This document shows, piece by piece, positions 22,006 through 49,560 of a DNA stretch of 64,000 bases. The stretch covers positions 67 to 64,066 of the forward strand of contig JAQUKX010000001.1 in assembly GCA_028718865.1 (NCBI GenBank). Reading direction: 5' to 3'. The position numbers and the translations under genes are program-made. The stretch is from Patescibacteria group bacterium (GTDB lineage Bacteria > Patescibacteriota > Patescibacteriia > UBA1558 > GWA2-36-10). Every line of letters starts with the position of its first letter. Position 1 is the first letter of the stretch. A model generated the notes under the pieces. It did not search any database. It was not told where the DNA came from and worked only from the letters and a program-made list of their open reading frames with translations.

Positions 22006-22207
22006 TGTCATTACGAGGAATCCTGAGTCTGCCATTCTGGAGCGAGCGTAGCGAGCGATAGAATCCACTTGTCATTCTGGAGCGAGCGTAGCGAGCGATA
22101 GAATCTACCATTATTCCTTCCTCAGAGCATCGAGCGATAGAATCTACCATTGCAACCGCCTTCTTAGATTCTATCAGTCGTCGCTAGCTCCTCCTTCCAC
22201 AATGACA
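22006..22207 (+). repeat. REP-like repeat cluster 1 (TGTCATT-tagged hairpins, with one inverted copy)
   Basis: Copies at 22030 and 22070, a degenerate unit, and an inverted variant at 22166-22207. Confidence 0.9.
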
Positions 22208-22248
22208 AAACAAAAAAACCTTACAACCATAATACTAATCACCAACTA

Positions 22249-23226
22249 ATGCCCCAAAGCCAAAACAACAAAACCATCCTAGTCACCGGCAGTGCCGGCT
22301 TTATTGGTTTCCACACCACTCTAGCTCTTCTAAAGCAAGGCCACACTGTCATTGGTCTGGACAACCTCAACCCCTACTACGACCCCAGTCTCAAAAAAGC
22401 CCGCAACAAAATCCTCAAGAAATACCCTAATTACCACTTTTATCAAGGCGACCTGATTGATTTGCCTTTTATCAAAAAAGTCCTAGTCAAACACAAAATA
22501 GACCAAATCTGCCATCTAGCCGCCCAAGCTGGCGTACGCTACAGCCTGACTCATCCTCACAGCTACATCCAAAGCAACCTAGTCGGCTTTACCCATCTGT
22601 TAGATGAAACCAAAAACCACAAGATCAAGGATTTTATTTATGCCTCCTCCAGCTCAGTTTACGGCCAAAATGAAAAACTGCCTTTTGCTGTCAATGATCC
22701 AGTAGATAGACCTGCTTCTCTTTATGCTGCTAGCAAAAAAGCCAATGAGCTCATTGCTTACACCTATCATCACTTGTACGGCCTCAATTGTACTGGTCTG
22801 CGTTTTTTTACAGTTTATGGTCCTTATGGACGACCGGACATGGCTTTATTTTTGTTTACTCAGGCTATTTTGGCTGATCAAACAATCAAAGTATTTAATC
22901 ACGGCAAAATGCAGAGAGATTTTACCTACATAGATGACATAGTAGCCGGCATCCTAGCCAGCCTTGACCGAGCCTATCCTTACGAAATATTCAATCTAGG
23001 CAATCATCAGCCAGTGGAGCTGGAATATTTCATAGAGCTGATAGAAAAAAATCTAGGCAAAAAAGCCAAAAAGGAATTTCTGCCTTTACAAGCTGGTGAT
23101 GTGAGAGCCACTTATGCTGATATAACCAGTAGCCAACAAAAACTCAATTGGCAACCAACTACTGCTATTGAAACCGGTGTTGCCAAGTTTATCAAATGGT
23201 ATAAGGAGTATTATAAAATAAAATGA
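22249..23226 (+). CDS. NAD-dependent epimerase (UDP-glucuronate 4-epimerase/CapI-like)
   Basis: GSAGFIG, HLAAQAGVRYS, ASSSSVYG, YAASKKANE, RFFTVYGPYGRPDMA. Confidence 0.93.
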   Translation: MPQSQNNKTILVTGSAGFIGFHTTLALLKQGHTVIGLDNLNPYYDPSLKKARNKILKKYPNYHFYQGDLIDLPFIKKVLVKHKIDQICHLAAQAGVRYSLTHPHSYIQSNLVGFTHLLDETKNHKIKDFIYASSSSVYGQNEKLPFAVNDPVDRPASLYAASKKANELIAYTYHHLYGLNCTGLRFFTVYGPYGRPDMALFLFTQAILADQTIKVFNHGKMQRDFTYIDDIVAGILASLDRAYPYEIFNLGNHQPVELEYFIELIEKNLGKKAKKEFLPLQAGDVRATYADITSSQQKLNWQPTTAIETGVAKFIKWYKEYYKIK

Positions 23227-24500
23227 TAAGCAAAATAAAAAATAAAATTTATTCACTTTTACGCCGTAGTGAAAAATATACCAAGACTGATATGGTTTAT
23301 TTGGCTAGCGGTGGATTTTGGTTGACTTCCGGACAGATCGTATCTAGCGCCGCTGCTTTTCTCTTGGCTATTGCTTTTGCCAATCTTTTACCCAAAGAAA
23401 CTTATGGTGTTTACAAATATGTTTTATCTATAGCCGGCATGCTGGCTATTCCCACTTTGTGGGGCATGGGGACAGCCATTTCCCAAGCAGCCGCCCGAGG
23501 ATATGATAATGTTCTTGCTCCGGCAGTAAAAACCCAGATAAAATGGGGGCTATGGGGCGGACTATTAGGAATAGGCACAGGATTTTATTATTATCTAAAT
23601 AATAATCCTTTACTATCATTGAGCTTCTTCGCTATCTCCATCTTTATTCCTTTTATGGATCCGCTCAACTCTTATACTTCTTTGCTCTTAGGTAAAAAAC
23701 TCTTTAAAAAAGCCAATAAATATGAAATCATTGCTCGGATAAGCGCTACCATTTTAATTATCGCCGCACTTTTACTTACTAAAAATATTATTTTGTTATT
23801 GTTAGTTTATTTCGGCTCTCACACTCTATTGAGATTGATATTTTTTTATCTGACTCTTAAACAAGAATCAGGCAAACAGAAAGAAGATAAAGAAGTTATA
23901 AAATATGGCAAACACCTAAGTCTAGTAAAAGGCATCAATCTAGCAGCTGGTAATATTAGCAATATTTTTCTTTTTCATTTTATCGGCAGCGCCAGTCTGG
24001 CTATTTATTCTTTTGCTATTGCCCCGATGGAACAATTGCGGACTCTGATAAAAATCGCTGATCAGATAATTTTCCCCAAAATCGCCAAAGACAACTGGTC
24101 AATTTACTCTTTCAATTTTTTTATAAAAAAAATCAGCCCATTTATAATTATCTTATCACTAATCTCTTTAACTTATATTTTTATTGCCCCTTTATTTTTT
24201 AAATTATTTTTCCCCCAATATATTGAATCCGTTTTTTATTCTCAGTTATACGCTCTGACTATACCACTTACCGGAATCAATTCTATCCAAGATACAATTC
24301 TCAAAGCAAAAAGAGAAACCAAAAAAATATATTTGGTCAATATAATCAACTCAATCAGCGTATTTATTATCTATTTACCAATGATTTATCTGTGGGGAAT
24401 TTTAGGATTAGTCTGGGCAGTGATTATTGGTAAAATTATTGAATTCATAACTTACTCAGTACTTGTTTTTAGAATAAGCTCTGCTGAAAAAACGGAATAA
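23223..24500 (+). CDS. Oligosaccharide flippase (Wzx/MOP family)
   Basis: About 12 hydrophobic segments; ANLLPKETYGVY; position in a glycan locus. Confidence 0.8.
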   Translation: MISKIKNKIYSLLRRSEKYTKTDMVYLASGGFWLTSGQIVSSAAAFLLAIAFANLLPKETYGVYKYVLSIAGMLAIPTLWGMGTAISQAAARGYDNVLAPAVKTQIKWGLWGGLLGIGTGFYYYLNNNPLLSLSFFAISIFIPFMDPLNSYTSLLLGKKLFKKANKYEIIARISATILIIAALLLTKNIILLLLVYFGSHTLLRLIFFYLTLKQESGKQKEDKEVIKYGKHLSLVKGINLAAGNISNIFLFHFIGSASLAIYSFAIAPMEQLRTLIKIADQIIFPKIAKDNWSIYSFNFFIKKISPFIIILSLISLTYIFIAPLFFKLFFPQYIESVFYSQLYALTIPLTGINSIQDTILKAKRETKKIYLVNIINSISVFIIYLPMIYLWGILGLVWAVIIGKIIEFITYSVLVFRISSAEKTE

Positions 24501-25379
24501 ATAATGGGAAAATGGTAAAAAAGTAAAGACCCAAAAAAGAAAAAATTTTTTTCTGCCCACACTAGCAAACTTCCAAGACTCCTGAGCATAGTAAATTGCT
24601 CGTTTTTTTTCGCCCAACAAAAGTAAGCCTACAGCCGCGCCATAAGCTGTACCTGCATACCTATTGGGTGAATTTTTTATAAAAAAATCTCTGGTGTTTT
24701 CAAGTAAATACTCCAAACCCTTTGCTCTTTTTATTGATAGATCGGGATGAAAAGATTTTCTTTTTTTTGTTTCTGAAAGATGATCTGAATGCAAATAAAC
24801 CTTTCCCAAAGATTCGTTAAGGTGGTATATTTTTTTATTTTCAGAAAACAAAAAATAAAAAGAAAAATCAATATTGGGACCCAAAAAATCTAAGCCGCTC
24901 CTAACGCTTGATCTTAAAAAAATTACCGCATCATTTTTGGGGATTTTGCCGGAAAAAAGATCGGCTCTATCGGCAAAACCGCTGTCTCTATGCTGAAAAT
25001 CTAATATCTTCTGCCCATCAAAAAAATCCGTAGGAGCATAAAGCATGTCTATCTCCGGATATTTTTTTAAAATATCACTTGCCTTTTCAAGGGCATGATT
25101 GTATAACTCATCGTCACTATCCCAAATAATAAAATAATCACCCCTCATCACTTCCATACCTTTGTTTCGGGCAACAAAAGCGCCGGAATTTTTTTCTAAT
25201 TGAAAATATTGAATTCTTTGATCTTTTACCCCCAACACCATCTGAGTAGTTCCATCACTAGAACCATCATCTACTATTATCAATTCGAAATTAGTAAAAG
25301 ACTGCCTTAAAATACTATTTATAGTCCTTCTCAACAAATCTTTTCTATTGTAAGTTGCAATAATAATACTAAAAAACAT
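24456..25379 (-). CDS. Glycosyltransferase family 2
   Basis: FSIIIATYNR, IIVDDGSSDGT, ARNKG, WDSDD. Confidence 0.92.
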   Translation of the reverse strand: MFFSIIIATYNRKDLLRRTINSILRQSFTNFELIIVDDGSSDGTTQMVLGVKDQRIQYFQLEKNSGAFVARNKGMEVMRGDYFIIWDSDDELYNHALEKASDILKKYPEIDMLYAPTDFFDGQKILDFQHRDSGFADRADLFSGKIPKNDAVIFLRSSVRSGLDFLGPNIDFSFYFLFSENKKIYHLNESLGKVYLHSDHLSETKKRKSFHPDLSIKRAKGLEYLLENTRDFFIKNSPNRYAGTAYGAAVGLLLLGEKKRAIYYAQESWKFASVGRKKFFLFWVFTFLPFSHYLFRFFSRAYSKNKY

Positions 25380-25387
25380 AAATCAAT

Positions 25388-26152
25388 TTATTTTATTCTC
25401 ATTATTTTCGCTTTCAAAAACAAAAATATTTTCCAGATTTTCTCCAAAAAAATTACTTTCTTATTTTTATAAACATAAGTATAATCATCGGTGATTCTTC
25501 CGCCAAATCCCAACTTGAATCTATCAATACCTGCTTTAGCCGGATCTTGCAAATTGACATAAGCCAAATCCACTCCTCCAAAGCCATGCTCCGAGGCAAA
25601 AAGACATATTTCCCAAATAATGCGGCGGGAAGCGGCGCTGATTATTTTTATTATTTCTTTATCTGATTTATTTTTGCGCAAAGAGCTGAAATTCTTAATA
25701 CGCAGAACACTTTTAGCCTTGTAAACCGCCGAGCAAGCCAACACTTCGCCTTTAAAAGAGGCTCCAAAAAAAATAAACTCTTTGAAATTCCCTATCCTGT
25801 CTGGCAAACGGCCTTGAGATATTTCATGTTTTTTATAGACAATATAGCAATCCTTAAAAAAATTTTCACCAAACTTAGTTTGAAAAAAAGACAAGTCTTT
25901 ATTTTTATAAGTCCTGTTTACTTCATTTCTGGTCGTATCATTAAAATTTTTAAAAATCCTATCTTTATCTGGAAAAATATCAATTATACTTGTTTTCTTT
26001 TTTCTCAACTCAAAATCTTTTTTATCGCTTATTTCCCTGTCTGTAATAATAGCAATATAATCATACTTGTTTTTTAGCTCCTGCAAATCACCAAAAGGCT
26101 CTAAGATAAAAAAAACTTTTTTGATAAAAAAATTATTTTTTTCCACTATCAT
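25388..26152 (-). CDS. FemABX-like (GNAT-fold) aminoacyl/acyl transferase
   Basis: IFKNFNDTTRNEVNRT and GIDRFKLGFGG resemble FemAB-family motifs; ATG at 26152 preferred over 26287. Confidence 0.6.
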   Translation of the reverse strand: MIVEKNNFFIKKVFFILEPFGDLQELKNKYDYIAIITDREISDKKDFELRKKKTSIIDIFPDKDRIFKNFNDTTRNEVNRTYKNKDLSFFQTKFGENFFKDCYIVYKKHEISQGRLPDRIGNFKEFIFFGASFKGEVLACSAVYKAKSVLRIKNFSSLRKNKSDKEIIKIISAASRRIIWEICLFASEHGFGGVDLAYVNLQDPAKAGIDRFKLGFGGRITDDYTYVYKNKKVIFLEKIWKIFLFLKAKIMRIK

Positions 26153-26831
26153 AATTTTTTCTTGGCTGAGTACAGATAAAATAAATTGATTTACTAAAAA
26201 ATGGTAAAATTTTATATACCATATCTTTCCAATTTGATCCTCGCCATGGCTGTAAAGATATTCTATAAATAATTTTGACTTTTTCAAAATATTTTTTCAG
26301 ACCCAACAAACTATCAAACCAGGCCATCCTATAAAGTTTTATCCCCTGATAATCTGCATATCTTCCAGAAAATAGAAAATTAATCCTTTTTATAAAAAAA
26401 ATATTATGGCTATTAAAAATAAATGCCCCGCCTGGTTTTAATACTCTTCTTGCTTCAGAAACGCACTGATATATATCAGGATAAATACAATCTATGCCAT
26501 GAAAAGGAAAAAAAACATAATCAAAAGAATTATCTTCAAATTTTAAATCAGTGGCGTCCATCTCCAGAATTTTGATATTCATTCCTTTGATCTTGGCCGC
26601 TGATTTTTCCACCATTTCAGGCACTATGTCTATAGCCGTAATATCAAATCCTTTTTTATAAAGAGGTAAAAGCGTACGACCAGCGCCGCAGCCCAAAACT
26701 AAAAGTTTTGCTTTTTTATCTTTAAAATACTTCTCTATTAAAAACTCCTCATCGAATCGCCAATAATCCTGTTTATCATAATCAGCGGCCTGCTGGGCAA
26801 AAATTTTTCTATTCTGCTCAATCATCATCAA
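26133..26831 (-). CDS. Class I SAM-dependent methyltransferase
   Basis: LLVLGCGAGR, IDIVPEMVE, FEDNSFDYV, RVLKPGG. Confidence 0.9.
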   Translation of the reverse strand: MMMIEQNRKIFAQQAADYDKQDYWRFDEEFLIEKYFKDKKAKLLVLGCGAGRTLLPLYKKGFDITAIDIVPEMVEKSAAKIKGMNIKILEMDATDLKFEDNSFDYVFFPFHGIDCIYPDIYQCVSEARRVLKPGGAFIFNSHNIFFIKRINFLFSGRYADYQGIKLYRMAWFDSLLGLKKYFEKVKIIYRISLQPWRGSNWKDMVYKILPFFSKSIYFICTQPRKNYDSGKK

Positions 26832-26848
26832 AAAAATTAATTATAAAA

Positions 26849-27550
26849 TTATTTTAAATACCCTTTTATTTTCCAAGGAATCTTTTTCAACATCAACCTA
26901 AACTTAAAATTACTGATATTTTTATTTATAATAATCCGCGGCAAATTATATTTATCAATATTTTTATTATCCAATATTACTCCATTACCACCAAAAGCAA
27001 ACTGATAATAACGAGCTGTCATTTTCCTGACTTCTTCATTACTATCTGCTTTGGGATACGCAAAAAAATCTCCTTTTTCTCCAAAAATACCTTGGATTAA
27101 TTCTTTCGACAGTTTAAGATTCTTTTCCAAATCAACTTCGCCCAAAGAGGTCATTTTTTTATGATCCAAGCCATGACTGGCAAAATTTACCAAACCACTG
27201 GCCTGCATTTCTTTTATTTTTTCCAAATCCATTATTTCTAGCTCCCTATCTGGAATGAATATTTTTTTACCTATTAAATTTGGCGGTATAAAAACAGTTA
27301 TTGGCACTTTCAATTCTTTTATAACCGGCAAAACATTAAAATAATTATCTGCCAACCCATCATCGAAAGTAACTATTGCTATTTTATTTTTATTAAAATC
27401 TGGATGACTAAGATAATCTTTTAATTGCTCTAGCCTAATTATTTTAAAACTAGATTTAATCCAAGATAGCTGTTTATAAAAAACGCTTTTACTTACAGAG
27501 TAAAAATAATCCGAATCATCTACTGAATGATAATTAAAAATGGCAATCAT
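26849..27550 (-). CDS. Polysaccharide deacetylase (CE4/NodB)
   Basis: YHSV, VTFDDG, FASHGLDH, FAYP, LPRI. Confidence 0.9.
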   Translation of the reverse strand: MIAIFNYHSVDDSDYFYSVSKSVFYKQLSWIKSSFKIIRLEQLKDYLSHPDFNKNKIAIVTFDDGLADNYFNVLPVIKELKVPITVFIPPNLIGKKIFIPDRELEIMDLEKIKEMQASGLVNFASHGLDHKKMTSLGEVDLEKNLKLSKELIQGIFGEKGDFFAYPKADSNEEVRKMTARYYQFAFGGNGVILDNKNIDKYNLPRIIINKNISNFKFRLMLKKIPWKIKGYLK

Positions 27551-28296
27551 CTTTTTTTACAAACAGCAATTAAGCGTCGGCTTTTATCAGTTGAGCATTG
27601 GTTGAAAAATCGTGGCCAAATTTTATTATTATAATATTTTCTCAAAATTTTCAAATCCCAATATCTATTATCCAAAAATTTATAAAAAACCTTAAATATA
27701 TGAAATCCTGTCTTGTCCTGTCCAAGCATTTTTTCTACTACAAAAAAATTATCAACCGTGGATTTGAGTGATTCAGCCGAAAAATGTTGATAATGCTTGC
27801 TCTCTGGCGTTGGCTCACCATTAAATAAAGACGGAACAGTAATGATCAATTGGCCATCTTTTTTCAAAACCCGATTCAACTCCCCTAAAACATTATCAAT
27901 GTTATCAGGAATGATATGCTCTAGAGTCTCTATCAAATACACAAAATCATAAGTTTCACTTTCAAAGGGTAATTTTACTAAATCGGCTACGACAAAATTT
28001 ACTTCCGGTAAAAGCAACTTGGCAAAAGACACTGCCTTTTGAGAATAATCAACGCCTGTTACTTTACACTTTTTTGTAGCAACAAGCTCTTTGCAAAATC
28101 TTCCATCACCACAACCAGCGTCCATTACATTAAGATCGCTTCTGGAATCGGCATCTAAAAATGATTGGCAAATTGATAAATATCCGAAATATAGACGCCC
28201 ATCATCCGTATCCTTTTCTTTAAACCAATGATAAGGACCTATGTTGTAATCATTTTCTTGCTCCCATTGTTTATCTGTGAGATTCAACATATACAA
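27547..28296 (-). CDS. Class I SAM-dependent methyltransferase
   Basis: VMDAGCGDGR, GVDYS, ETLEHI, RVLKKDGQLIITVP. Confidence 0.9.
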   Translation of the reverse strand: MYMLNLTDKQWEQENDYNIGPYHWFKEKDTDDGRLYFGYLSICQSFLDADSRSDLNVMDAGCGDGRFCKELVATKKCKVTGVDYSQKAVSFAKLLLPEVNFVVADLVKLPFESETYDFVYLIETLEHIIPDNIDNVLGELNRVLKKDGQLIITVPSLFNGEPTPESKHYQHFSAESLKSTVDNFFVVEKMLGQDKTGFHIFKVFYKFLDNRYWDLKILRKYYNNKIWPRFFNQCSTDKSRRLIAVCKKR

Positions 28297-28299
28297 AAA

Positions 28300-29451
28300 T
28301 TATATTTTTACAAAATTAATTATATTGTTTACTCTGCTTCCCCAACTATACTCTTTTACTTTACAATAAGCTCCAGCAGCTAATTTTTCGCTTGAATTCT
28401 GATTATTGTACAAGTATAATATTTTTTCCGCTAAATTACTAGGATTATCCGGCTGGCAAAATAAACAATTTTCTTCATCTAGTATTTCTTTAATTGCCGG
28501 CAAATCAGAAGCTATTATCGGTCTATAGCTAGCCATATACTCAAACATCTTTAGAGGTGACATATAATAAGCATAATGCTGACTATAGGGGAAAGGCATA
28601 AGCAAAATATCAAAAGCTTTTTGATAAATAGGCAAATCAATAATACTCACTTTGGTAAGTAGTTTAATCTGATCAACCACCCCTTCTTCTTTGGCTAAAT
28701 TTTCATAAAAATCAATATCTGCTTGACTACCGCCTACTGCCCAAAAATAAATCTCTTGTTTTTTATCTTGCAAAATTCTTATAGCTTTAATTATGTCAGT
28801 TATTCCCTTATCTTCTCCCATGGTCTTAAAACTTCCAGTATAAGCGACTATTTTCAGATCTTGCCTAATCCCTAGTTTTTTTCTGGCTTCGTCTTTGCTC
28901 ATTTCAATATCAAATATTTTCAAATCTACTCCATCATGGGCTACCAAAATTTTCCCGGACGAAAAACCATTTTTAATAAATATATTTTTTAAATAATTTG
29001 TGGTTGTAACAATATAATCCGATTTTTTAGCCAAAAATTTAAAAAACCAAGTTTTGTTAATAGGCCAAGAATGACACTCATAAACGGTTTTATGCCCTCT
29101 AAGAGAAAATAGAAAAACAATTTCTGCACCTCTGCTAAAAACAAGATTGTCTTTCGGCAATCTAACAAAAAACAACCTGATTAAATAAAATAAATTTTGC
29201 AAATAAACCGCAAATTTACCAAATATGCTGTTATAATTTATAAAATCAAAACTTTTCAGGTATTTTATTTTAAAATTTTTGTCTAAACCATAAAAAGAAA
29301 AAAGGTCTTCTTTTATTTCATTTTTTCTAGTCGGCACTATTAGCTCTACCTCATGTCCGGCTCGGGCAAATTCCTCGCACATTTTAGCTATCTGGTAGCC
29401 ATGAGCTTTTTCCGTGGGAATCCTGATATTTGTTATATAGCTTATTTTCAT
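28300..29451 (-). CDS. Glycosyltransferase family 4
   Basis: HDGVD, SPLKMFEYMASYRPIIASDLP. Confidence 0.9.
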   Translation of the reverse strand: MKISYITNIRIPTEKAHGYQIAKMCEEFARAGHEVELIVPTRKNEIKEDLFSFYGLDKNFKIKYLKSFDFINYNSIFGKFAVYLQNLFYLIRLFFVRLPKDNLVFSRGAEIVFLFSLRGHKTVYECHSWPINKTWFFKFLAKKSDYIVTTTNYLKNIFIKNGFSSGKILVAHDGVDLKIFDIEMSKDEARKKLGIRQDLKIVAYTGSFKTMGEDKGITDIIKAIRILQDKKQEIYFWAVGGSQADIDFYENLAKEEGVVDQIKLLTKVSIIDLPIYQKAFDILLMPFPYSQHYAYYMSPLKMFEYMASYRPIIASDLPAIKEILDEENCLFCQPDNPSNLAEKILYLYNNQNSSEKLAAGAYCKVKEYSWGSRVNNIINFVKI

Positions 29452-29457
29452 GGATTT

Positions 29458-31299
29458 TTATTTAAATAGCTTATACCAAATCTGAAAAGTAATCAATGAC
29501 CAAATAGTATTGAGAGCATATTCTTTTTTCTCCATATGATTATCCAAAATTAGCTTTATTTCATCAAAATCAAAAAAATCTCTAGTGTCGGGATTATAAT
29601 CTGGCGACAATATTTCATAAGCCGTTTCTTTTAATCCTGTTCTAAGCCATTTGGCAGCTGGAGAAAACCAACCGGTCTTAGGCTTATTATATAAATAATC
29701 AGGTAAATATTCCCTTACTGCCTCCTTAAAAATCCTTTTACCTTGCTCTTTAGTGCCCAACTTATACTTAGCGGGAATAGAAAAAGCCAAATCTACCAAC
29801 TCTTTATCCAAAAAAGGTACTCTTTGCTCCAGCGCAAAAGCCATTGACAGTTTATCAGATTTGGCAAAAGATTCATCAGTCAGCCAGGTGCTAAGATCTA
29901 CTCTCATCAAATAGTCAGCATAATTCTTAAAAGGTCGCCCAAAATGCCTCTGGTTTATAATCTCCCTGCTTTTAGACAAATTATTGATATCTGCTTTCAA
30001 AAATCTTTTTACCATTTCCTCTTTTTGAGCACTAAACTGCCAAAACAAATCCAAACCACTTTGAGCATTGAGTTTCTTATACTCCTTTTCCTTATTCAAG
30101 CTTCTAGCCAAAGATTCCGCTAGCTTATTTTCTCTTATTATTTTTGGCAACTTTTGCCAGCTATCCACTAAGTTATAAAAATAATATCTCTGATAACCGC
30201 CGAATAATTCATCGCCGCCATCACCACCTAAAACAACGTCAACCTGCTTTTTAGCCTCTTTGGATAAAAGATAAGTGGCTACTTGCGTATGGTTGGACAC
30301 GAGTTCATCCATTTGATAAACCACTTTTTCTATATTTTCCGCCACATCCTTGGCCGAAACCAATAATTCATAATGCTCTGTCTGATAATATTGGCTATTC
30401 TTCCTAGCCAGCTGGCTATCTGCATTGAATTTTTCCTCTTCTAGATCAATATCAAATTTGACAGTAAAAGTTTTTATTTTATGACTCACTATTTTAGACA
30501 TTGAGCCCAAAATAGCAGTAGAGTCAACTCCACCACTTAGAAACAAGCCCAAAGGCCTGTCAGATATCAATTGTCTTTTGACTGCTGCATCAAATTTCTC
30601 TCTAATTGTTTTTTTGGCTTGATCATAAGAATAATTGGCTATCTCCGGTAATTGATAATAATTTTTGATAAATAATTTTCCTTTTTCCAAAATCAAATAA
30701 TTTCCAGCGGACAATTTCTTTATATGCTTAAACATTGTCAAAGGAGCGCTGATATACAAAAATCTAAAATAAAGATTAAGAGCGTCAAAATCCAAATCCT
30801 TTTCTATTTTATGCTCCAAAATTGCTTTTATTTCTGAAGAGAAAATAAATTTGCCATTTTTAAAATAATAAAAAAACGGCTTTATTCCAAAATGATCACG
30901 AGCGGCAAAAAGCTTATTTCTTTTTTTATCCCAAATAGCCAAAGCAAAAATGCCATTAAATTTTTGCAAACAGCTTTCGCCATAAGCAATATAAGCGTTT
31001 AAAATAACCTCCGTATCTGTATTGGAAAAAAAATTATAACCCTTGTCTAAAAGGTCTTTTTTTATTTCCTGAAAATTATAAAGCTCGCCATTATAGGTAA
31101 TAATATAATTGCCATCTTTACTTATCATAGGTTGATGCCCGGAAGAGGACAAATCTATTATGGATAATCTATTGTGCCCCAAAGATATCCCTTTATCTAT
31201 GAAAACACCCTGGTCATCAGGACCGCGATATTTGATTTTTTCATTCATCCGCTCTATCAATCCTTGGTCGGCAAAATTAAATCCGTTTACTCCGCACAT
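29458..31299 (-). CDS. asnB: Asparagine synthase (glutamine-hydrolysing)-family amidotransferase
   Basis: N-terminal MCG, RGPDD, RLSIIDL, NGELYN, LSGGVDS, GDGGDELFGGY, RVPFLD. Confidence 0.93.
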   Translation of the reverse strand: MCGVNGFNFADQGLIERMNEKIKYRGPDDQGVFIDKGISLGHNRLSIIDLSSSGHQPMISKDGNYIITYNGELYNFQEIKKDLLDKGYNFFSNTDTEVILNAYIAYGESCLQKFNGIFALAIWDKKRNKLFAARDHFGIKPFFYYFKNGKFIFSSEIKAILEHKIEKDLDFDALNLYFRFLYISAPLTMFKHIKKLSAGNYLILEKGKLFIKNYYQLPEIANYSYDQAKKTIREKFDAAVKRQLISDRPLGLFLSGGVDSTAILGSMSKIVSHKIKTFTVKFDIDLEEEKFNADSQLARKNSQYYQTEHYELLVSAKDVAENIEKVVYQMDELVSNHTQVATYLLSKEAKKQVDVVLGGDGGDELFGGYQRYYFYNLVDSWQKLPKIIRENKLAESLARSLNKEKEYKKLNAQSGLDLFWQFSAQKEEMVKRFLKADINNLSKSREIINQRHFGRPFKNYADYLMRVDLSTWLTDESFAKSDKLSMAFALEQRVPFLDKELVDLAFSIPAKYKLGTKEQGKRIFKEAVREYLPDYLYNKPKTGWFSPAAKWLRTGLKETAYEILSPDYNPDTRDFFDFDEIKLILDNHMEKKEYALNTIWSLITFQIWYKLFK

Positions 31300-31923
31300 T
31301 TATTTTTTCTTTAAAATAAAAAAATGATGGTAAGGGGACTCAAAAGCAATATTGTCTTTTACTAGCTCCAGACCAGCTTTTTGGATATGCTTTTTTATTC
31401 TTTTAAGCGGATAATTTTTTTTTCCTATTTCCCAATAATGCTCCCCTCTGAACTGATGAGCAATGGGTTTTTTATCAAACTTGTATTGCCATTTTTTGTA
31501 GCCAATTTTTGGAAGAAAAATTTTAAAGGAAAAATGACGCCCCCAATGCGGCAAGCTTAACAGTATATATTTTTTACTTACTCTTTTAAGTTCCGCTATA
31601 GCCTGATCAAAATCTTCAAAGGGTAAATGCTCTAGTACTTCAAAAGCACAGACCAAATCAAAACTATTATCAGCCAACGGTAATTTTCTTACATCTCCCA
31701 AAATATCCGGCGATAAATCTTCAGCTATATCTACGTTTTTATAATTTATCGTAGTGTTGTTTTTCAAATAGCTAGCCAAAACTTTATCGCCTACACCTAT
31801 TTCCAAAACTTCAGCCGGCTGCAAAGCTAGAATTTCTTTGATCTGATACCAATAGCTACTCCATCTATCCAAAGTAACATAAGAAGAAAAATTATAATGC
31901 TCTTTATCTACTTGCTTATTCAT
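31300..31923 (-). CDS. Class I SAM-dependent methyltransferase (type 11)
   Basis: VLEIGVG, LPLADNSFDLV, EVLEHLP. Confidence 0.88.
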   Translation of the reverse strand: MNKQVDKEHYNFSSYVTLDRWSSYWYQIKEILALQPAEVLEIGVGDKVLASYLKNNTTINYKNVDIAEDLSPDILGDVRKLPLADNSFDLVCAFEVLEHLPFEDFDQAIAELKRVSKKYILLSLPHWGRHFSFKIFLPKIGYKKWQYKFDKKPIAHQFRGEHYWEIGKKNYPLKRIKKHIQKAGLELVKDNIAFESPYHHFFILKKK

Positions 31924-32981
31924 TTATATTCTTTTAATATTTTTTCCACCAAAATTCCTATTTCATGGTTATTGGCCACTAGCTCCCTCAATTTCTTCCC
32001 CAATAATCTTCTTTCTTTTTTATCTTTGTTGATAAGAAAAATAATTTTGTCAGCCAGTCCCATTATATCATCTTTTTCATAACCCAGATAATCTTTATAA
32101 TCCGACAAAACATCATTTTTAACTGCATCATTATTTGACAAAACCAAGGTGCCACAAGCCATTGCCTCTAAAGACACTTTGTCCAAACCCCCTTCTTGGC
32201 ACATATGGACCAACAAATTTGCTCCTCTGAAATATTTTACCACTTGATCATTACTCACCGGCCCGACAAAAGAAACAATGTCTGACAATCCTTTTTCTCT
32301 GGCCATTGTTTTTATTTGCTCAAAATAATTTTCATCTGCCGTCATAACTGGGCCGCCGACAATATTAACAAAAATTTTCTTATTTATTTTTCTTTGCTTG
32401 ATTATTACCAAAGCTTCTATTAATTGTTCATATTTTTTTATCGGCGATATTCTGCCAACTGTCAAAATATTAAAAACATCATTGTCTTCAACTTGCTTGT
32501 CTTTTGGACTGAATTTTTCCGTATCTATGCCATGACCCATTACTTTTAATTTTTTGCTTTGCAAACGAAAACTACTATCTGAAGCGCTAAAAATAATATC
32601 CGTCAATTTTTCCGCTAGCTTCAAACTATTATTTATATTTTTATGGGTATACCACAAGCCGATTTTTTTGTGCATAATTTTCCAAAACCAAGCTCCCAAA
32701 ATCACATAAACCTGATTCATATGCACAAAAACATTTTCGTATTCTTTTCTGTATTGCCAGATGTATTTATAAAACCTAAAAATATATTTTATCCTTGATA
32801 CTCCGCTTTCTTTGCCCAGAGACAAAACTCGGACATTGTCCGGCAAATCATAATCTCCTTTATAAAGACAAATAACTATCACTTGCGAACAATGCTTGGC
32901 AAATTCTTTGAGCCAATAATGGAAAAATCCCAGTATTGGATCGTCTTTATCAACTTTTTGAGTCAAGATCAAAAGTTTCAT
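31920..32981 (-). CDS. Glycosyltransferase family 4
   Basis: HGIDT, VGRISPIK, LEAMACG; ATG at 32981 gives an ATGA overlap with the upstream stop. Confidence 0.9.
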   Translation of the reverse strand: MKLLILTQKVDKDDPILGFFHYWLKEFAKHCSQVIVICLYKGDYDLPDNVRVLSLGKESGVSRIKYIFRFYKYIWQYRKEYENVFVHMNQVYVILGAWFWKIMHKKIGLWYTHKNINNSLKLAEKLTDIIFSASDSSFRLQSKKLKVMGHGIDTEKFSPKDKQVEDNDVFNILTVGRISPIKKYEQLIEALVIIKQRKINKKIFVNIVGGPVMTADENYFEQIKTMAREKGLSDIVSFVGPVSNDQVVKYFRGANLLVHMCQEGGLDKVSLEAMACGTLVLSNNDAVKNDVLSDYKDYLGYEKDDIMGLADKIIFLINKDKKERRLLGKKLRELVANNHEIGILVEKILKEYK

Positions 32982-34057
32982 AAAATACTTTGCCAATTAT
33001 TTATAGTTGCTTCTCTTAGCTCCTCTCGGCTAGCAATCTTTTGGACAAAAAATTGAGTATTAGCCCCTAGCTTAGCAATCAGAACTCTATCTTTGACTAC
33101 TCTTTCCATAGCTTGAGTCAAAAGATCTAGGTTTCCTACTGGCACTATCAAGGCGTTTTTTTCATTTTCCGTTAGATAGCCGGCACAGCCCACATCCGTC
33201 ATTATCACCGGTAAACCAGCTACTACTGCTTCCGCTACAGCCACCCCATAACCCTCACTATCGGAACTAAGCAAAAAACAATCAGCTGTCTGATAAAATC
33301 CGGCCAAATTCTCCTGCCACAGAGCAAATTCAATTCTATCTTTGACTCTCAATTTTACAGCCAATTCCATCAGTTCCTGTCTTTGCGGTCCATCGCCCAC
33401 TATTACTAATTTTACTTTTTCCTCTTTGGGCAATTTAGCCAAAGCTTGAATTTGTAAAGCAATATTTTTGACTGGCACTAGCCGAGAAACAGTTAAAAAA
33501 ATAAAATGACCAGGATATTTTTGTTTTAAATCAATCTCAATTTTTTCTTTAACTATTCTTTCTCTATCCACAAAAACCGGCAAAACATAAATTTTATTTT
33601 TGTCTATTTTATAATCCTCTGTCAATTGGTGGGCTAGACGATGACTGACTGTCCTTATTTTATCCGCCTGCTTGATTGCCCGCTTAAATAAATATCTACG
33701 TAAAAAATTATTTTTTTCAAAGCCGTGTACCTGAATTTCCAATTTCAAGCCAAAACGCTTAGCAATCATGCCTCCCAAACAAGCCAAATAGGCCGTATCC
33801 TGAACTGTTAGTAAATCAAATTTTTCTTTTTTTAATATTTTGTTTAAAAAATTATAGATATTTTTCCAAGCCAAAAACTTATTGGCTCCGCTTATTCCTA
33901 TTGATCTTACTTTGGAGGCCAGTTGAGTTTCATTATTTTTTCCTGGCACTACTATCAAATATTTTTCCAATCTTTCCCCAACAAAAATAGCTCGCTTAGC
34001 TACTGCCGAGCCAGCATCAAGAATTCTATTGTCTAGTCCTAAAGATAAAACTTTCAT
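32978..34057 (-). CDS. Glycosyltransferase family 4
   Basis: VSRLVPVKN, IVGDGP, EGYGVAVAEA...PVIMTDVG. Confidence 0.9.
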   Translation of the reverse strand: MKVLSLGLDNRILDAGSAVAKRAIFVGERLEKYLIVVPGKNNETQLASKVRSIGISGANKFLAWKNIYNFLNKILKKEKFDLLTVQDTAYLACLGGMIAKRFGLKLEIQVHGFEKNNFLRRYLFKRAIKQADKIRTVSHRLAHQLTEDYKIDKNKIYVLPVFVDRERIVKEKIEIDLKQKYPGHFIFLTVSRLVPVKNIALQIQALAKLPKEEKVKLVIVGDGPQRQELMELAVKLRVKDRIEFALWQENLAGFYQTADCFLLSSDSEGYGVAVAEAVVAGLPVIMTDVGCAGYLTENEKNALIVPVGNLDLLTQAMERVVKDRVLIAKLGANTQFFVQKIASREELREATINNWQSIL

Positions 34058-35169: not shown

Positions 35170-35195
35170 ATTTTATATAATTTTATCATTCCTTT

Positions 35196-37496: not shown

Positions 37497-37604
37497 ATTT
37501 TTATGTATTTTATAGCTATAAAACATAATAACAATACAATAAAAAGGCAGAAAAATCAACTAAACAAACATTGAATCCGCCTAGGGAAAAATAAGCAAAA
37601 TATC

Positions 37605-38959: not shown

Positions 38960-39250
38960 ATGAACAAACAATACTTTGTTTATATTTTAGCTAGCTATAA
39001 ACACGGAACCTTGTATACAGGAATAATAAGTGATTTAAGTAAACGAATATTACAGCATAAAGAAAAATTCTATCCTCAATCTTTTACTGCTAAATACAAT
39101 ATAAATAAACTGGTTTATTATGAAATACATGAAGATCCTTATGAGGCAATATCCAGAGAAAAACAAATTAAAAACTTATTACGGATTAAAAAAATAAAAT
39201 TAATTGAAGAAAAAAATCCTAACTGGCAAGATCTACATAATGAGCTATAA
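38960..39250 (+). CDS. Small stand-alone GIY-YIG nuclease (UPF0213-like)
   Basis: FVYILAS...TLYTG...DLSKRILQHK...FTAKY...LVYYE...AISREKQIK...NPNWQDL; conserved Arg and Glu present. Confidence 0.9.
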   Translation: MNKQYFVYILASYKHGTLYTGIISDLSKRILQHKEKFYPQSFTAKYNINKLVYYEIHEDPYEAISREKQIKNLLRIKKIKLIEEKNPNWQDLHNEL

Positions 39251-39253
39251 GCC

Positions 39254-39296
39254 TGTCCTTCTGGAGCGAGCGTAGCGAGCGATAGAACCTACCATT
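39254..39296 (+). repeat. REP-like G.A-hairpin copy abutting the GIY-YIG stop codon
   Basis: TGTCCTTCTGGAGCGAGCGTAGCGAGCGATAGAACCTACCATT, separated from the TAA stop by only 3 bp. Confidence 0.9.
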
Positions 39297-41546: not shown

Positions 41547-41727
41547 TGTCATTGCCGAGCGAGGCGGGCGTATGCTCATCCACTTGTCATTCTGGAGCGA
41601 GCGTAGCGAGCGATAGAATCCACCATTGTCATTCTGGAGCGAGCGTAGCGAGCGATAGAATCCACCATTGTCATTCTGGAGCGAGCGTAGCGAGCGATAG
41701 AACCTACCATTGCCCTTACCTCAAAGC
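41547..41727 (+). repeat. REP-like repeat cluster 4: three head-to-tail 42-bp units
   Basis: Units start at 41585, 41627 and 41669 with no spacers; degenerate units on both flanks. Confidence 0.92.
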
Positions 41728-42577: not shown

Positions 42578-42772
42578 TGTCATTAAGCCTGTCATTCTGG
42601 AGGGAGTCGGGCGTATGCCCGACGACCGATAGAATCCACCATCTGTCATTCTGGAGCGAACGCAGTGAGCGATAGAATCTACTTGTCATTCTGGAGCGAA
42701 CGCAGTGAGCGATAGAATCCACCATTGTCTCTGCCTCAAAGTATCGAGTAATAAAACCCGTCTGTCATCCCG
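42578..42772 (+). repeat. REP-like repeat cluster 5
   Basis: Long-stem variant at 42590, two GAACGCAGTGA variants at 42644 and 42684, plus partial units. Confidence 0.9.
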
Positions 42773-42860: not shown

Positions 42861-45800
42861 TTACAGAGTAACTGCAATTGTTTGGGTGTCGGTTGGTAAG
42901 TTCTTGACATAAGTGGAATCTAGCCAGTCTGAAGATGTTCCGTCTGCCAAGTGAGGCACAGCAGAACGATCAGACCAGATAAAGCCAGTTTCGTAAAGGC
43001 TGATTAGAGTATAAGTAGTAGAAGTACCAGCTGTAGCTGCGGCTGCTGAAGCATTGATATAAGTACTCAATTGCTTATAACCTGATCCATCTAAGCCAAT
43101 ACCTGCCTTCAATTCATAGGTCTGGCTAGCGCCAGCAGCAATAGTCTGCTCCTGGGTAGTAGTGACAGTAATCAAGCTACCGCTTGGTGTCCAGCTGACA
43201 TTTGACTCGTTCAAAGCTGAGGAGTCTCCCTGTTTGTACAACTTGACGCTATTGGCATCAATAGTCACGCCAATTGAGGAAGCTGTAGTAAAGGAAATTT
43301 GTCTCCAGCTTAGAGGAGCTACGGCATCAGCCGTGACGGTAAAGCGGGAAATAGTCTGAGTGCCTCCAGCCAAAATAGTGGTAGGCAAAGCGGCCAAGGT
43401 AATAGTTGGCTTAGTAGCTCTCACTATCATGGAATTACCATTAACGGGACCTCCCGTGTAAGTATATCCTGTCACACCAGATGACTCGCCCTGGGCACTA
43501 AAGACAGTGGCACTGCCAGTAGAAGCCACTAGGTCTAATCTAGCTGAATTACCTGATACTCCGCCTTGGTTGGCAATAGTGGTCAAGTCAGCTTTGACGG
43601 TTAATACCGCTGTGCTGTCTTTAGCCACATACATACCTAGATTGTAGAACTGAGCTACTCCACTTCCGTCCAAGTATCCATAAGCAGTGGCCGTACCGGT
43701 CTTAGTTGGGTATTCTAGTACTACTCTAGAAATTGTGGCTGCTACACCACTAGCACCGGTAATCTGCAAAGTGTTGATGAAATGCGCTTCGTTTGTAGCG
43801 CTAAATTCAACAGCATTGAGAGTAACGGCTGGCAATCCAGCTACCACAATAGTAGCATCTGGTCGGCTGCCAGCAGCATTAGCTGTAACAGCTCCAGCAG
43901 CAATTGCCATGGTCTGCAAAGTATCTCCGGCGGCAACCTGATTAGTGTTGGTCACTTTAGAAGTACCCTCACCAGCTACTACCAAAGTAATAACAGCTGA
44001 TGGTAGTCCTGATTTGACATCTGCATAGACATCCACCACTTTACTCTGACCAGCATTGAGCGACAGCTTATTGCCGACATTGAAGGTAGTAGTGCCTGAA
44101 GTAGGCATAGTCACGCGGGTAGCCAATTCAGTAGTACCCTGCATCAATTTGACATTGGATACTTCGCCAGAAGTAGCTCCGCTTAGGTAAATGACATTGA
44201 CGTCAATACCTTCAGTAGCACCAGCGCTCACAGTAAATGCGCCAATTCTGGCATTGAGAGCTGGCGAAGTTACATTTTGGTTACCATAAGCAGCAAACTT
44301 AGCCATAGACAATGCTGATTCAGTAACAGTCAAGGTATTACCTTCTGCTCCAGGCACAGTGACTGTCTGCAAGGAAACTTGTCCTTGAGCGTCATTGCCA
44401 GCACTGATTTCTACTTTTACCAATCCACTGGTAATGTCTACACCAGTAGCTGTCTTGATATCCGCATAGATATCCAGCATTTTGGCTGTACCAGCTGGCA
44501 CAATCAAGCTAGAGCCAAAAGTAAAGTTGACATCGGTATCTTCAGTCAAGTTCCTAGTAGAACCAACTTGTACACCATCAAAATAAACTTTACCGTTTTG
44601 TAAACCGCCATTAAGAGCAATAGAAGTAGTGGCTTTTACATTCAAGCTCCTAACTCTTACATCCTCACCAGAAGCCTCTACCTTAAAGGTAGCCAATTTT
44701 ACATTGGTGGCCTTAGCTGCTACTTGTCCGCTAGGAGAAGTATTGTCTCTGACTATGGACAAAGTACCAGCTTGGATTTCAAATTGTCCAGAAGCAGTCA
44801 AAGCTGACCATGAAGTGCTGCCAGAAGTAAATGACTGGGTAAACACTCCATAACCCATGTCTTTGACTATGATGTCAGAAGCATCTCGGACATCAAATTT
44901 AAATGTTCGAGTAGATCCTTTGACAATGTCAATTACCATGGACAAGGTGCGAGTATTGCCTTTGGCAATAGCATAAGGAGAATTGGACAAGTCAAAGAAA
45001 ACCTCTCCGTCCGCATTCATAGTAGCTGTGCCAATAGTAACACCGGCTACTTGCAAGCGGAAATTATCCACATCACCTACGCCAATACTGCCGATTTTGG
45101 TCAAACGCAATCCATGTAAGTGAAGATCCTGATCAGTAGCAGTTAAGCTGATTTTGAAAGCTTCAAAATCTTTTTCATCGGAATTAACCTCAACTGTTCC
45201 AGTTGGGATCATAGTACCGGTGATAACTGCATAGCCAAGATCAGTTGCTTGAGCAGTGCTCATCACATTACCGACCAAAGGATAAGAGCCGGATAGTGAA
45301 GAAGCATTGCTTACTACTTCAGTCAAGTTAAAACCAATGGTCTTACTGGCTGAAGTTGGAACTTCCAAATCAGCTTTTAGCCAGACAGTTCTGGTAGCTC
45401 CAGCTGGAATGGTGATAATACCACTAGCTGAAGTGTCATTGAAGGTCAAAATCTTGGAAGATAGCGAACCTCCTTCTACCAATCTTTCACTGCCATAATA
45501 CAAATAGGCATTGCGAATGTCGCTGTCAGCGGAAATGCCTGTTCTCTCAAATTTCATTTGAGTGACCCTGACACTGCCAGCTGAAGAAGCAGTCAAGTTC
45601 ACTGCCAAAAATGGCACTAAAGCTTGAGCAGTGTTACTATCATCAGAAATGATAGTGGCTGACACTGGGTTGTTGGCTGACATAGATAGAGTCAAGCCAC
45701 CAGCTGGTGTAACCGGAGTAGAGCCTTCGGCCGGCATAAATCCGGACAAAGCTACTTCCTCACCAGTGATGGATGATCCCATGCTCCAGCCGGAAACATT

Positions 45801-46418
45801 GGGCACGCTGATGACATTGCTGTATTTGAAGCCATTGACTTCAAAAGCATCGGCATCGGCAAATGGCCTTACCTGGCTGCTGCTGGAGACATAGTAAATG
45901 TCTGAACCAACCTGCAACAAGGTTCCGATTGGGTGGGTGCTTCCCAAATCAGATCCAGCTACATAGCTGGATGAGAAATAGCCCGGAATTACATCCATTA
46001 CTCTGGAAGCCCAGTTGGCTCCATAGAGATTTGAGGCTACTTCAGCTGTAGGAATCCAGCGGATGACTCCGCCCGGCTCCACAGCGTAAACGCGAGCTGT
46101 ATTCTCGTGGGTAATCAATTTGGTACCAGCACGATAGGTGACAGCTCCGCCGTCTGGATACATATCCAGCTCGGCTACGCTTACTCTGACTACGTCATTG
46201 AAGTTCTCATACCAAGTGAAATAAGTCTTGGCATCAGGAAAGACATATTTCCTTCCATCAGAACCAATGTAGTAGACAGCTGCATCCTTAGCGCCTTGTA
46301 GAGCAAGCAAAGATCCTGCTCCATAGCTACCAGCTGCATCTACTTTTAGTCCTCCAAGGGACCATAGGACAGTGGTAAGCATCAAAGCGAAAACAAGAAA
46401 TCTTTTTGTTAAATTCAT
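42861..46418 (-). CDS. Large secreted S-layer-like surface protein
   Basis: Signal peptide ending VDAA; three N-terminal ~60-aa repeats (VYYIGSDGRKYVF, VYAVEPGGVIRWI, IYYVSSSSQVRPF); then Thr/Ser/Gly/Ala-rich beta-sandwich-like repeats; no Cys. S-layer role is inferred. Confidence 0.65.
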   Translation of the reverse strand: MNLTKRFLVFALMLTTVLWSLGGLKVDAAGSYGAGSLLALQGAKDAAVYYIGSDGRKYVFPDAKTYFTWYENFNDVVRVSVAELDMYPDGGAVTYRAGTKLITHENTARVYAVEPGGVIRWIPTAEVASNLYGANWASRVMDVIPGYFSSSYVAGSDLGSTHPIGTLLQVGSDIYYVSSSSQVRPFADADAFEVNGFKYSNVISVPNVSGWSMGSSITGEEVALSGFMPAEGSTPVTPAGGLTLSMSANNPVSATIISDDSNTAQALVPFLAVNLTASSAGSVRVTQMKFERTGISADSDIRNAYLYYGSERLVEGGSLSSKILTFNDTSASGIITIPAGATRTVWLKADLEVPTSASKTIGFNLTEVVSNASSLSGSYPLVGNVMSTAQATDLGYAVITGTMIPTGTVEVNSDEKDFEAFKISLTATDQDLHLHGLRLTKIGSIGVGDVDNFRLQVAGVTIGTATMNADGEVFFDLSNSPYAIAKGNTRTLSMVIDIVKGSTRTFKFDVRDASDIIVKDMGYGVFTQSFTSGSTSWSALTASGQFEIQAGTLSIVRDNTSPSGQVAAKATNVKLATFKVEASGEDVRVRSLNVKATTSIALNGGLQNGKVYFDGVQVGSTRNLTEDTDVNFTFGSSLIVPAGTAKMLDIYADIKTATGVDITSGLVKVEISAGNDAQGQVSLQTVTVPGAEGNTLTVTESALSMAKFAAYGNQNVTSPALNARIGAFTVSAGATEGIDVNVIYLSGATSGEVSNVKLMQGTTELATRVTMPTSGTTTFNVGNKLSLNAGQSKVVDVYADVKSGLPSAVITLVVAGEGTSKVTNTNQVAAGDTLQTMAIAAGAVTANAAGSRPDATIVVAGLPAVTLNAVEFSATNEAHFINTLQITGASGVAATISRVVLEYPTKTGTATAYGYLDGSGVAQFYNLGMYVAKDSTAVLTVKADLTTIANQGGVSGNSARLDLVASTGSATVFSAQGESSGVTGYTYTGGPVNGNSMIVRATKPTITLAALPTTILAGGTQTISRFTVTADAVAPLSWRQISFTTASSIGVTIDANSVKLYKQGDSSALNESNVSWTPSGSLITVTTTQEQTIAAGASQTYELKAGIGLDGSGYKQLSTYINASAAAATAGTSTTYTLISLYETGFIWSDRSAVPHLADGTSSDWLDSTYVKNLPTDTQTIAVTL

Positions 46419-46745: not shown

Positions 46746-46750
46746 GCTTT

Positions 46751-46959
46751 TGTCATTCTGGAGCGAGCGTAGCGACCATCTGTCATTCTGGAGCGAGCGT
46801 AGCGAGCGATAGAATCTACCATTGTCTCTGCCTCAAAGCACCGAGCGATAGAATCTACAGACCGTTCCTTTCAGTCATTCCCGTCCCCGCCTTCGCGGGG
46901 ATAAACTCCAGCGGGAATCTACTTTGAGATAAAGAGAATCGATAGAATCCACTTGTCAT
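46751..46959 (+). repeat. REP-like repeat cluster 6
   Basis: Truncated copy at 46751, full copy at 46781, degenerate unit, nested ATTCCCG unit at 46873. Confidence 0.9.
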
Positions 46960-47043
46960 CAGACAAATCCAGACAAAAACTCATACCCTCAACCTAACGC
47001 TTCTGGCGTGACTAGCGCCAATCGCGTCTGTTAAGAGGTTTGT

Positions 47044-47072
47044 ATTATAAATTATTAAATAACTATTATCAT
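47044..47072 (-). promoter_or_regulatory. Putative sigma70 promoter for the surface-protein leader
   Basis: Minus strand ATGATA-N17-TATAAT, followed within a few nt by a long hairpin. Confidence 0.5.
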
Positions 47073-47084
47073 TGCGATGCCAAT

Positions 47085-47356
47085 CGTAGCGACCACCTGT
47101 CATTCTGGAGCGAGCGTAGCGAGCGATAGAATCTACCATTGTCTCTGCCTCAAAGCACCGAGCGATAGAATCTACCATTGTCTCTGCCTCAAAGCACCGA
47201 GCGATAGAATCTACAGACCATTCCTTTCAGTCATTCCCGTCCCCGCCTTCGCGGGGATAAACTCCAGCGACCTTCTTTTCAGTCATTCCCGCGAAAGCGG
47301 GAATCTACTTTGAGATAAAGAGAATCGATAGAATCTACCATTGTCTCTGCCTCAAA
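47085..47356 (+). repeat. REP-like repeat cluster 7 (near-duplicate of cluster 6)
   Basis: Same module order as 46768-46949, with two internal expansions. Confidence 0.9.
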
Positions 47357-47370
47357 TATAACCCACTCTC

Positions 47371-49249: not shown

Positions 49250-49256
49250 AAATACA

Positions 49257-49282
49257 GACGGGAAATTGCCTAAAATATTACA
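49257..49282 (-). promoter_or_regulatory. Putative ECF autoregulatory promoter
   Basis: Minus strand TGTAAT-N16-CGTC, 7 nt before the sigma ATG. Confidence 0.55.
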
Positions 49283-49385
49283 CTTTTACGAGCTAAATTA
49301 CAATTGACTATTTATTGGCTAACCTTAAATAAATAAAAAAACGTGATTACGCTTTTGTTTTAACCCCTGATTACAAAGTCAGCAA

Positions 49386-49414
49386 ATTATAACATTTTCA
49401 TTCATGAATGTAAA
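49386..49414 (-). promoter_or_regulatory. Putative sigma70 promoter of the ECF operon
   Basis: Minus strand TTTACA-N17-TATAAT with extended -10 TG. Confidence 0.65.
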
Positions 49415-49433
49415 GAAAAAGCTTATTGTTTTC

Positions 49434-49560
49434 TGTCATTCTGGAGGGAGTCGGGCACGTGCCCGACGACCGATAGAATCTACTTGTCATTCTGGAGCGA
49501 ACGCAGTGAGCGATAGAATCCACCATTGTCCCTACCTCAAAGCATCAAGCGATAGAATCC
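49434..49560 (+). repeat. REP-like repeat cluster 8
   Basis: Long-stem variant at 49434 (GTCGGGCACGTGCCCGAC), GCA-loop variant at 49485, degenerate unit. Confidence 0.9.

Follow-up and report, generated by a model that had tools for sequence, protein, structure and literature searches.

Hairpins interrupted by tandem G·A steps are likely recognition sites of an Ssn-type nuclease at a surface-polysaccharide locus of a Patescibacteria bacterium

Ssn proteins (cd10448), such as SsnA of Neisseria meningitidis, are small single-domain GIY-YIG nucleases encoded next to tagged NTS/SRM hairpins. According to the text of PMC11893778, they bind the tagged hairpin as single-stranded DNA (ssDNA), on one strand only, and cut just 5' of it; Ssn homologues cut ssDNA beside hairpins tagged TGTC or CGTC, and SsnA does not bind RNA. 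Here we describe a family of TGTC-tagged hairpins, interrupted by tandem G·A steps, in a 64,000-nt stretch of a Patescibacteria group bacterium (assembly GCA_028718865.1, contig JAQUKX010000001.1, positions 67 to 64,066; hereafter the window), together with an adjoining gene for an Ssn-type nuclease (38960-39250). Judged from sequence, these hairpins are likely the recognition sites of that nuclease, and they likely fold on the tagged strand through predicted G·A pairs.

Each repeat consists of a 4-nt tag, an outer stem of six pairs, the last of them G·T, a tandem GA/GA step, a variable inner hairpin and a C tail. The inner hairpin is built from Watson-Crick pairs and further GA/GA or GNA/GNA steps, and usually closes with a GNA triloop. 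The window contains 15 complete copies, 14 on the forward strand and one on the reverse (22167-22207), and the outer-arm pattern matches it 11 times compared with none in 200 shuffles. A preliminary description, made from the letters of this DNA without database searches, had reported about 15 full copies at eight intergenic sites; the number of copies and their eight clusters hold, but the clusters occupy only seven intergenic regions, two of them sharing the region at 46.4-47.4 kb. The variant interiors were found where that description had placed them: nine copies carry the main interior, three carry AC-GCA-GT (42644, 42684 and 49485), two are long (42590 and 49434) and one is inverted. Its GNA triloop is present in 12 of the 15 copies and absent from the two long copies and the inverted one, and its TGTC-like tag is carried by 14, the copy at 22030 reading TGCC. 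The copies do keep a G·A pattern in place of a Watson-Crick palindrome, although in three (39254, 41669 and 22167) a change in the outer stem is uncompensated.

The family shares with the Ssn/NTS hairpins a GTC tag, a stem that begins with AT, a C directly after the stem, directionality on one strand and clustering at surface genes. The G·A stem differs in being interrupted by GA/GA steps and in being longer (31-42 nt), and the published SRM pattern matches none of the 15 copies, although it does match two NTS-type copies in the window (35294 and 47281). A second relative is the CGTC-tagged REP families 1-4, which, as far as the text of PMC3733652 describes them, include a TGTC tag variant, AT first pairs, a CCA-like tail, intergenic placement, and dimers and clusters. 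The stems there have 8-9 bp and the loops 4-5 nt, compared with six pairs, GA/GA steps and a 3-nt loop here. The same text mostly discarded repeats with more than one stem mismatch and called head-to-tail dimers negligible, whereas such dimers dominate in the window and make up 34 of 104 pairs of the family overall; families with a single GA step may be represented in the Figure 2 consensus of that paper. The repeats fit the Ssn/NTS system and the broad CGTC superfamily but fail the stem definitions of both papers.

The window alone offers few distinct interiors, and covariation evidence was drawn from other genomes. Loci chosen by similarity of the nuclease protein (108) yielded 156 distinct tagged hairpins, selected for a GTCAT tag, five outer pairs and at least half of their bases paired; these were folded with a scorer that was neutral to the type of mismatch. 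Among the 81 internal loops of 2x2 nt in these hairpins, 53 were GA/GA, one was AG/AG and none was TC/TC, while shuffled interiors gave GA/GA a mean of 1.5 times and at most five times (60 rounds). The GA/GA step was found after 18 different outer stems. In all 436 distinct elements, 33 of the 70 loops of 3x3 nt were GNA/GNA and none was TNC/TNC. A search of 41 related genomes that left the interior free gave 37 matches in seven other genomes, and 34 of the 37, as counted from the listed matches, kept the outer GA/GA step. The two pairs inside this step were Watson-Crick in 142 and 132 of 147 family members (103 and 57 in shuffles), and inner 2x2 loops were again GA/GA in 36 of 42. The covariation across other copies that the preliminary description had called for was also apparent: in 26 members of equal length, compensatory changes occurred in 52 cells compared with 15 in shuffles. 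Because related sequences are not independent, these figures are counts, not probabilities. They bear out a strand-specific G·A constraint, as proposed from the window, with a qualification. Variants had been thought to keep every GA step, and this is so for the outer step only; the inner step consists of two ordinary pairs in 12 of the 26 members, while the other 14 are non-standard there and mostly have GA/GA. Watson-Crick pairs and GA/GA thus alternate at the inner position, so that GA/GA replaces two base pairs in register, with the outer step kept and the inner optional. We conclude that the G·A steps reflect genuine constraint on the sequence.

The structural basis for this constraint has precedents in isolated motifs. 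CGAG/CGAG blocks form sheared pairs by nuclear magnetic resonance (NMR; text of PMC10085684), and among 64 triloops only GNA gives a stable DNA mini-hairpin, GCGNAGC hairpins being described from the phage N4 promoter and the G4 origin (review text of PMC13037366). The main variant includes both, a CGAG/CGAG block capped by GCGTAGC, each of which is stable by NMR or melting in the texts cited. Those motifs do not form a dispersed, nuclease-linked family, and the outer G-GA-G/C-GA-T step found here is not in the pyrimidine-GA-purine context studied there. Taken together, folding of the repeats through predicted sheared G·A pairs is likely, and likely confined to the tagged DNA strand.

The ssn gene lies below the 100-aa limit of the open reading frame listing and was found by a GIY-YIG profile search of the genome. 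Its stop codon is 3 nt before the repeat copy at 39254, and it encodes a protein of less than 150 aa in which PF01541 is the only domain. Five residues (Y8, Y19, R29, H33 and E67) are invariant in 47 homologues and correspond to the five catalytic residues that the text of PMC8287910 names for SLX1; the catalytic Tyr, Tyr and Glu (Y8, Y19 and E67) were matched to SsnA Y6, Y17 and E64 by spacing, not by alignment. An alignment-based structure model reached a pLDDT (predicted local distance difference test) score of 94, with GIY-YIG proteins as the best matches in a fold search; the single-sequence model was unusable (pLDDT 55). NCBIfam contains no family matching the protein, and a PDB sequence search returned only 1zg2 (E 1e-3). 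NTS matches flank homologues of 50-64% identity at 18 of 97 loci, which serves as a proxy for cd10448 membership. The gene has no upstream tagged hairpin within 1.5 kb, and close relatives are bracketed on both sides. We assign it to the Ssn-type nucleases by domain, residue spacing, model and the adjacent repeat. The preliminary description had envisaged a protein that reads the hairpin on ssDNA, and a gene for a cognate candidate thus abuts a copy. It is the sole Ssn-like gene in the host genome at E<=1e-10. Three other small GIY-YIG genes (C12:6431-6655, C5:46830-47039 and C14:945-1157) belong to a different subfamily and stand alone, and neither they nor the UvrC gene of the host have tagged hairpins nearby.

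The association extends well beyond the window. An ssn-like gene is present in 33 of 50 repeat-bearing genomes, and in six of seven repeat-bearing relatives compared with 11 of 33 relatives without the repeat. At the 30 best ssn loci of repeat-bearing genomes, tagged hairpins occur within 500 nt in every case, 19 of them of the window's class; a tagged hairpin lies equally close at 76 of 97 distinct ssn loci, and 55 of the 76 have no SRM match. In a scan of species genomes, the family was found, among the 129 stretches listed, in records titled Patescibacteria, Fibrobacter, Clostridia, Bacteroidota and Gammaproteobacteria and in one archaeon, with the caveat that bin titles may err. Two loci with near-identical ssn proteins and this hairpin class (L399 and L402) come from bins titled Alistipes and an archaeon, a likeness that may be recent transfer or mis-binning. 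Matches to the loose outer-arm pattern in viral sequences were almost all attributable to chance, and protein scans of viral contigs gave zero, zero and five loci, two of them full-length.

When residues 71-78 of the nucleases were cross-tabulated against the hairpins within 200 nt, four classes emerged. The motif K.W.R.WK accompanies all-Watson-Crick stems, K.W.R.(not W)K accompanies five pairs plus GA/GA, K.G.R accompanies five pairs plus an asymmetric purine loop, and KN[LM][LV]R accompanies six pairs plus GA/GA, the class of the window. The rules were set on 139 loci, which gave 119 distinct proteins after 11 duplicates and nine broken or short sequences were dropped; 23 of these had no classed hairpin and eight no classed motif, and the motif predicted the flanking class in 87 of the other 88. 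The frozen rules were then applied to 91 new loci, which comprised 89 held-out proteins, seven without a hairpin and three with an unclassed motif. The class fitted in 78 of 79, compared with a mean of 27.7 and a maximum of 44 for shuffled labels, and the nearest hairpin fitted both upstream (71/73) and downstream (70/71). Of 32 repeat-bearing genomes, 19 have the motif KN[LM][LV]R.KK, compared with two of 40 in an unselected sample of the phylum; one of these two is apparently a genome that also belongs to the first set. Residues N72, L73, L/V74 and K77 are common to the proteins that have hairpins of this class beside their genes, and other protein columns separate the class less sharply. 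In the model, the segment corresponds to the loop that follows the helix with the catalytic Glu and to the first part of the helix after it. Contacts with DNA in SLX1 involve residues of that helix and of the loop behind it (text of PMC8287910), although this is only a rough analogy. The residue-to-hairpin correspondence is new here, and we infer from it a probable direct contact. Neither G·A pairing in such repeats nor Ssn specificity residues are reported in the literature searched, which included the main text and supplements of PMC11893778 (figures excepted) and left most subscription papers outside. Motifs beyond the four classes (KNLSR, KNYSR, KNY.R and K.Y.R) accompany further hairpin subtypes at L212, L244, L235, L239, L255, L406, L412 and L507, and the code may hold more than four entries.

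Natural loci suggest how such a correspondence could be exchanged. L153 and L216 share 806 nt without a difference, as far as the codon that follows N72, and then diverge, and the class of the downstream hairpin differs with the motif: L216 has an upstream Watson-Crick hairpin and a W..W motif, while L153 has the same upstream hairpin, KNLVR and downstream G·A hairpins. L183 and L184 share the arrangement of L153, and L150, L197 and L209 show the same mixed layout upstream and downstream. In a tree of residues 1-70, which is poorly resolved, 50 motif changes are needed among 167 rows and the class follows the motif; a whole-protein tree does not cleanly separate the hairpin classes. Contigs break at the repeats, and no informative junctions were seen there. 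We lean, by little more than even confidence, towards an exchangeable recognition code carried by Ssn, in which eight residues would read the stem geometry, cassettes would switch by recombining just before this segment and take the downstream hairpin along, and sheared G·A pairs would be a selected, protein-read signal.

In the mechanism that we propose, the tagged strand would fold when the DNA becomes single-stranded, and the other strand would have TC/TC mismatches, as the sequence statistics and published NMR suggest. By homology with SsnA, the nuclease would then bind the tag, stem and tail and cut a few bases 5' of the tag. Residues 71-78 would set which stem geometry is accepted, KN[LM][LV]R admitting six pairs plus GA/GA, if the observed correlation reflects contact. 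Dispersed copies would be left behind as cassettes of gene plus hairpin pass between genomes and recombine. Cutting of incoming ssDNA would tune the replacement of variable surface-polysaccharide genes, as SsnA does with transforming DNA in Neisseria; ComEC and DprA are both present in the host genome. How the copies spread is the least supported of these steps; local duplication is the route suggested by the tandem arrays and half units.

Several observations weigh against this account. Seventeen of the 50 repeat-bearing genomes have no ssn match, and an ssn gene lies within 3 kb at only four of 80 repeat loci, most copies being dispersed. The ViennaRNA DNA model folds the main variant at only -2.5 kcal/mol (z 0.82 compared with shuffles), shows little difference between the strands and does not support folding of the short variants; this objection is weak because DNA energy models fail on GNA mini-hairpins (review text of PMC13037366). 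Only three held-out proteins belong to the window's class, and there are exceptions (L151, L457 and L405). Well-supported independent pairs number only two to four per class, none contrary, which is too few for significance, and L216 is one short metagenome contig that may be an assembly chimera. The role in transformation is borrowed from one species.

The alternative that survives best accepts the hairpins and the link to Ssn but supposes that recognition by the enzyme is limited to the tag and outer stem, the match of motif and class reflecting a few cassette lineages inherited as blocks. The motif lies less than 100 nt from the downstream repeat, it follows the downstream hairpin at L150, L153, L197 and L209, where upstream and downstream classes differ, and G·A and Watson-Crick hairpins occur together in one genome with one ssn gene. 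This alternative stays live because independent contrasts are few and L216 may be a chimera. We nevertheless consider it unlikely, as the motif also agrees, in the held-out set, with the nearest hairpin upstream, which lies some 200 nt or more away, the class tracks the many motif changes required on the poorly resolved tree of residues 1-70, and no other column separates this class as sharply.

A second alternative is that the elements act as RNA, in which case tandem G·A pairs would stabilize mRNA hairpins with an effect on termination or decay. Such pairs are common in RNA too, and the copies are intergenic. RNA roles have moreover been proposed for tagged repeats (text of PMC3733652). The tagged strand between co-directional genes is nonetheless sense in 30 cases and antisense in 29 (16:17 when counted per region; crude gene calls were used, and 32 copies fall inside called open reading frames), and most window copies are antisense to their neighbouring genes. 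This lack of bias disfavours an RNA role. The loops of 148 family members include 61 GNA triloops (52 closed by C-G) compared with eight GNRA tetraloops and no TTCG, an 8-nt mini-hairpin melts at 76.5 C as DNA and at 39 C as RNA (review text of PMC13037366), and, as noted above, SsnA does not bind RNA. Rfam gave no match at the gathering score. An RNA role seems very improbable.

We give equally little credence to the idea that these are REP-like non-autonomous elements spread by an HUH/RAYT transposase, or neutral recombination anchors, with the nuclease gene a passenger: 76 of 80 loci are remote from any ssn gene, the head-to-tail arrays and half units look like products of local duplication, and the genome has one weak Y1_Tnp match, but that gene is on another contig with no tagged hairpin near it, the tag is TGTC and not GTAG, these hairpins lie on both sides of ssn genes in different phyla, and neutral anchors would not favour GA/GA over TC/TC to the extent seen. 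The repeats do resemble GTAG REPs/RAYT and the subterminal hairpins of IS200/IS605 in having a strand-specific ssDNA hairpin, a 4-nt tag, a nearby nuclease and dispersed non-autonomous copies. The preliminary description had called the family REP-like; with a GIY-YIG nuclease in place of an HUH transposase and no RAYT next to the repeats, the family belongs with the CGTC/NTS (Ssn) repeats, not with the GTAG/RAYT REPs.

These repeats matter in several respects. Most of what is known of sheared G·A pairs in DNA comes from synthetic oligonucleotides and from a small number of origins and promoters. In the present repeat family, which occurs in records of several phyla, such pairs behave as a selected element. 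The target range of Ssn is underestimated, given the majority of hairpin-flanked ssn loci in this sample that fall outside the published pattern. The residue-to-hairpin match offers a testable answer to a question left open in the 2025 Ssn paper, namely how a 95-aa single domain gets its specificity, and, if true, would provide a four-way orthogonal toolkit of ssDNA nucleases. The system is also a candidate control on DNA uptake at the surface-polysaccharide loci of ultra-small bacteria.

The host genome comprises 877 kb in 24 contigs and is 98% complete. Only three further copies of the window type were found elsewhere in it, two at C1:108.4-108.6 kb and a degenerate one on C3, so that the repeats cluster almost wholly in and beside the surface-polysaccharide locus (Table 1). 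Within this locus, 24456-37559 has a G+C content of 34%, compared with 41-43% elsewhere.

Table 1. Repeats, nuclease gene and surface-polysaccharide locus in the window
Feature	Position	Strand	Remarks
Surface-polysaccharide gene cluster	20635-41528		Sugar transferase, epimerases, flippase, glycosyltransferases, Wzy_C ligase
Two head-to-tail full copies, main variant	22030-22105	+	Followed by a 3'-half unit ending at 22144
Inverted copy	22167-22207	-	Three GA/GA steps, no GNA triloop
Full copy and 3'-half unit	35196-35270	+	Full copy at 35196-35231
Watson-Crick hairpins with the same tag	35294-35429	+/-	NTS-type 35294 (+); second type 35340-35368 (-); composite 35380-35429 (+)
Ssn-type gene (assigned)	38960-39250	+	96-aa single-domain GIY-YIG nuclease; PF01541, E 1.5e-11; Y8, Y19, R29, H33 and E67 intact
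Codons for residues 71-78 (KNLLRIKK)	39170-39193	+	Segment predicting hairpin class; loop after catalytic-Glu helix and start of next helix
Full copy	39254-39289	+	Directly 3' of the ssn gene; outermost pair with two changes
Three full copies, head-to-tail	41585-41704	+	Period 42
Long variant and two AC-GCA-GT variants	42590-42719	+	Long variant 42590-42636; AC-GCA-GT variants at 42644 and 42684
Truncated copy, full copy, half units and composite Watson-Crick hairpin	46751-46949	+	Full copy 46781-46816; composite hairpin 46874-46922
Full copy, half units and NTS-type copy	47098-47335	+	Full copy 47098-47133; NTS-type copy at 47281
Long variant, AC-GCA-GT variant and half unit	49434-49559	+	Long variant 49434-49480; AC-GCA-GT variant 49485-49520

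The window also contains eight units that keep the 3' arm only (22135, 35261, 46846, 46940, 47163, 47202, 47326 and 49550), each after a common spacer of about 25 nt. Part of this spacer is the reverse complement of the spacer that follows NTS-type copies, and these spacers look like template switching inside former head-to-head dimers. In the window, 14 of 15 copies are on the C-rich strand, which hints at a replication-strand bias, but no such bias holds generally (43:30, p 0.16), and local duplication is the better explanation. The six bases before the tag are identical at the end of the ssn gene (39248-39257) and at the 42590 copy (42584-42593), perhaps as the remnant of a second cassette end.

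Watson-Crick-perfect hairpins with the same tag are found in the window at 35294, 47281 and 35340-35368, and all-Watson-Crick NTS-type hairpins are numerous in the host genome as a whole (window 35294-35429, 46874-46922 and 47230-47308; C3:36-41 kb, C10:20.3 kb and C12:670). Despite this, no ssn gene with the matching W..W motif was found in the host genome, and these hairpins may be orphans of a lost cassette or may be cross-recognized. Elsewhere in the window, a gene of 1185 aa with no Pfam match at 1e-5 lies between repeat clusters (42861-46418), and short repeats with a 7-nt period occur at 2408-2473 and 63603-63640, intergenic at 2.4 kb. Three tandem paralogous genes at 4255-5814 share 194-nt stretches that are 78-88% identical.

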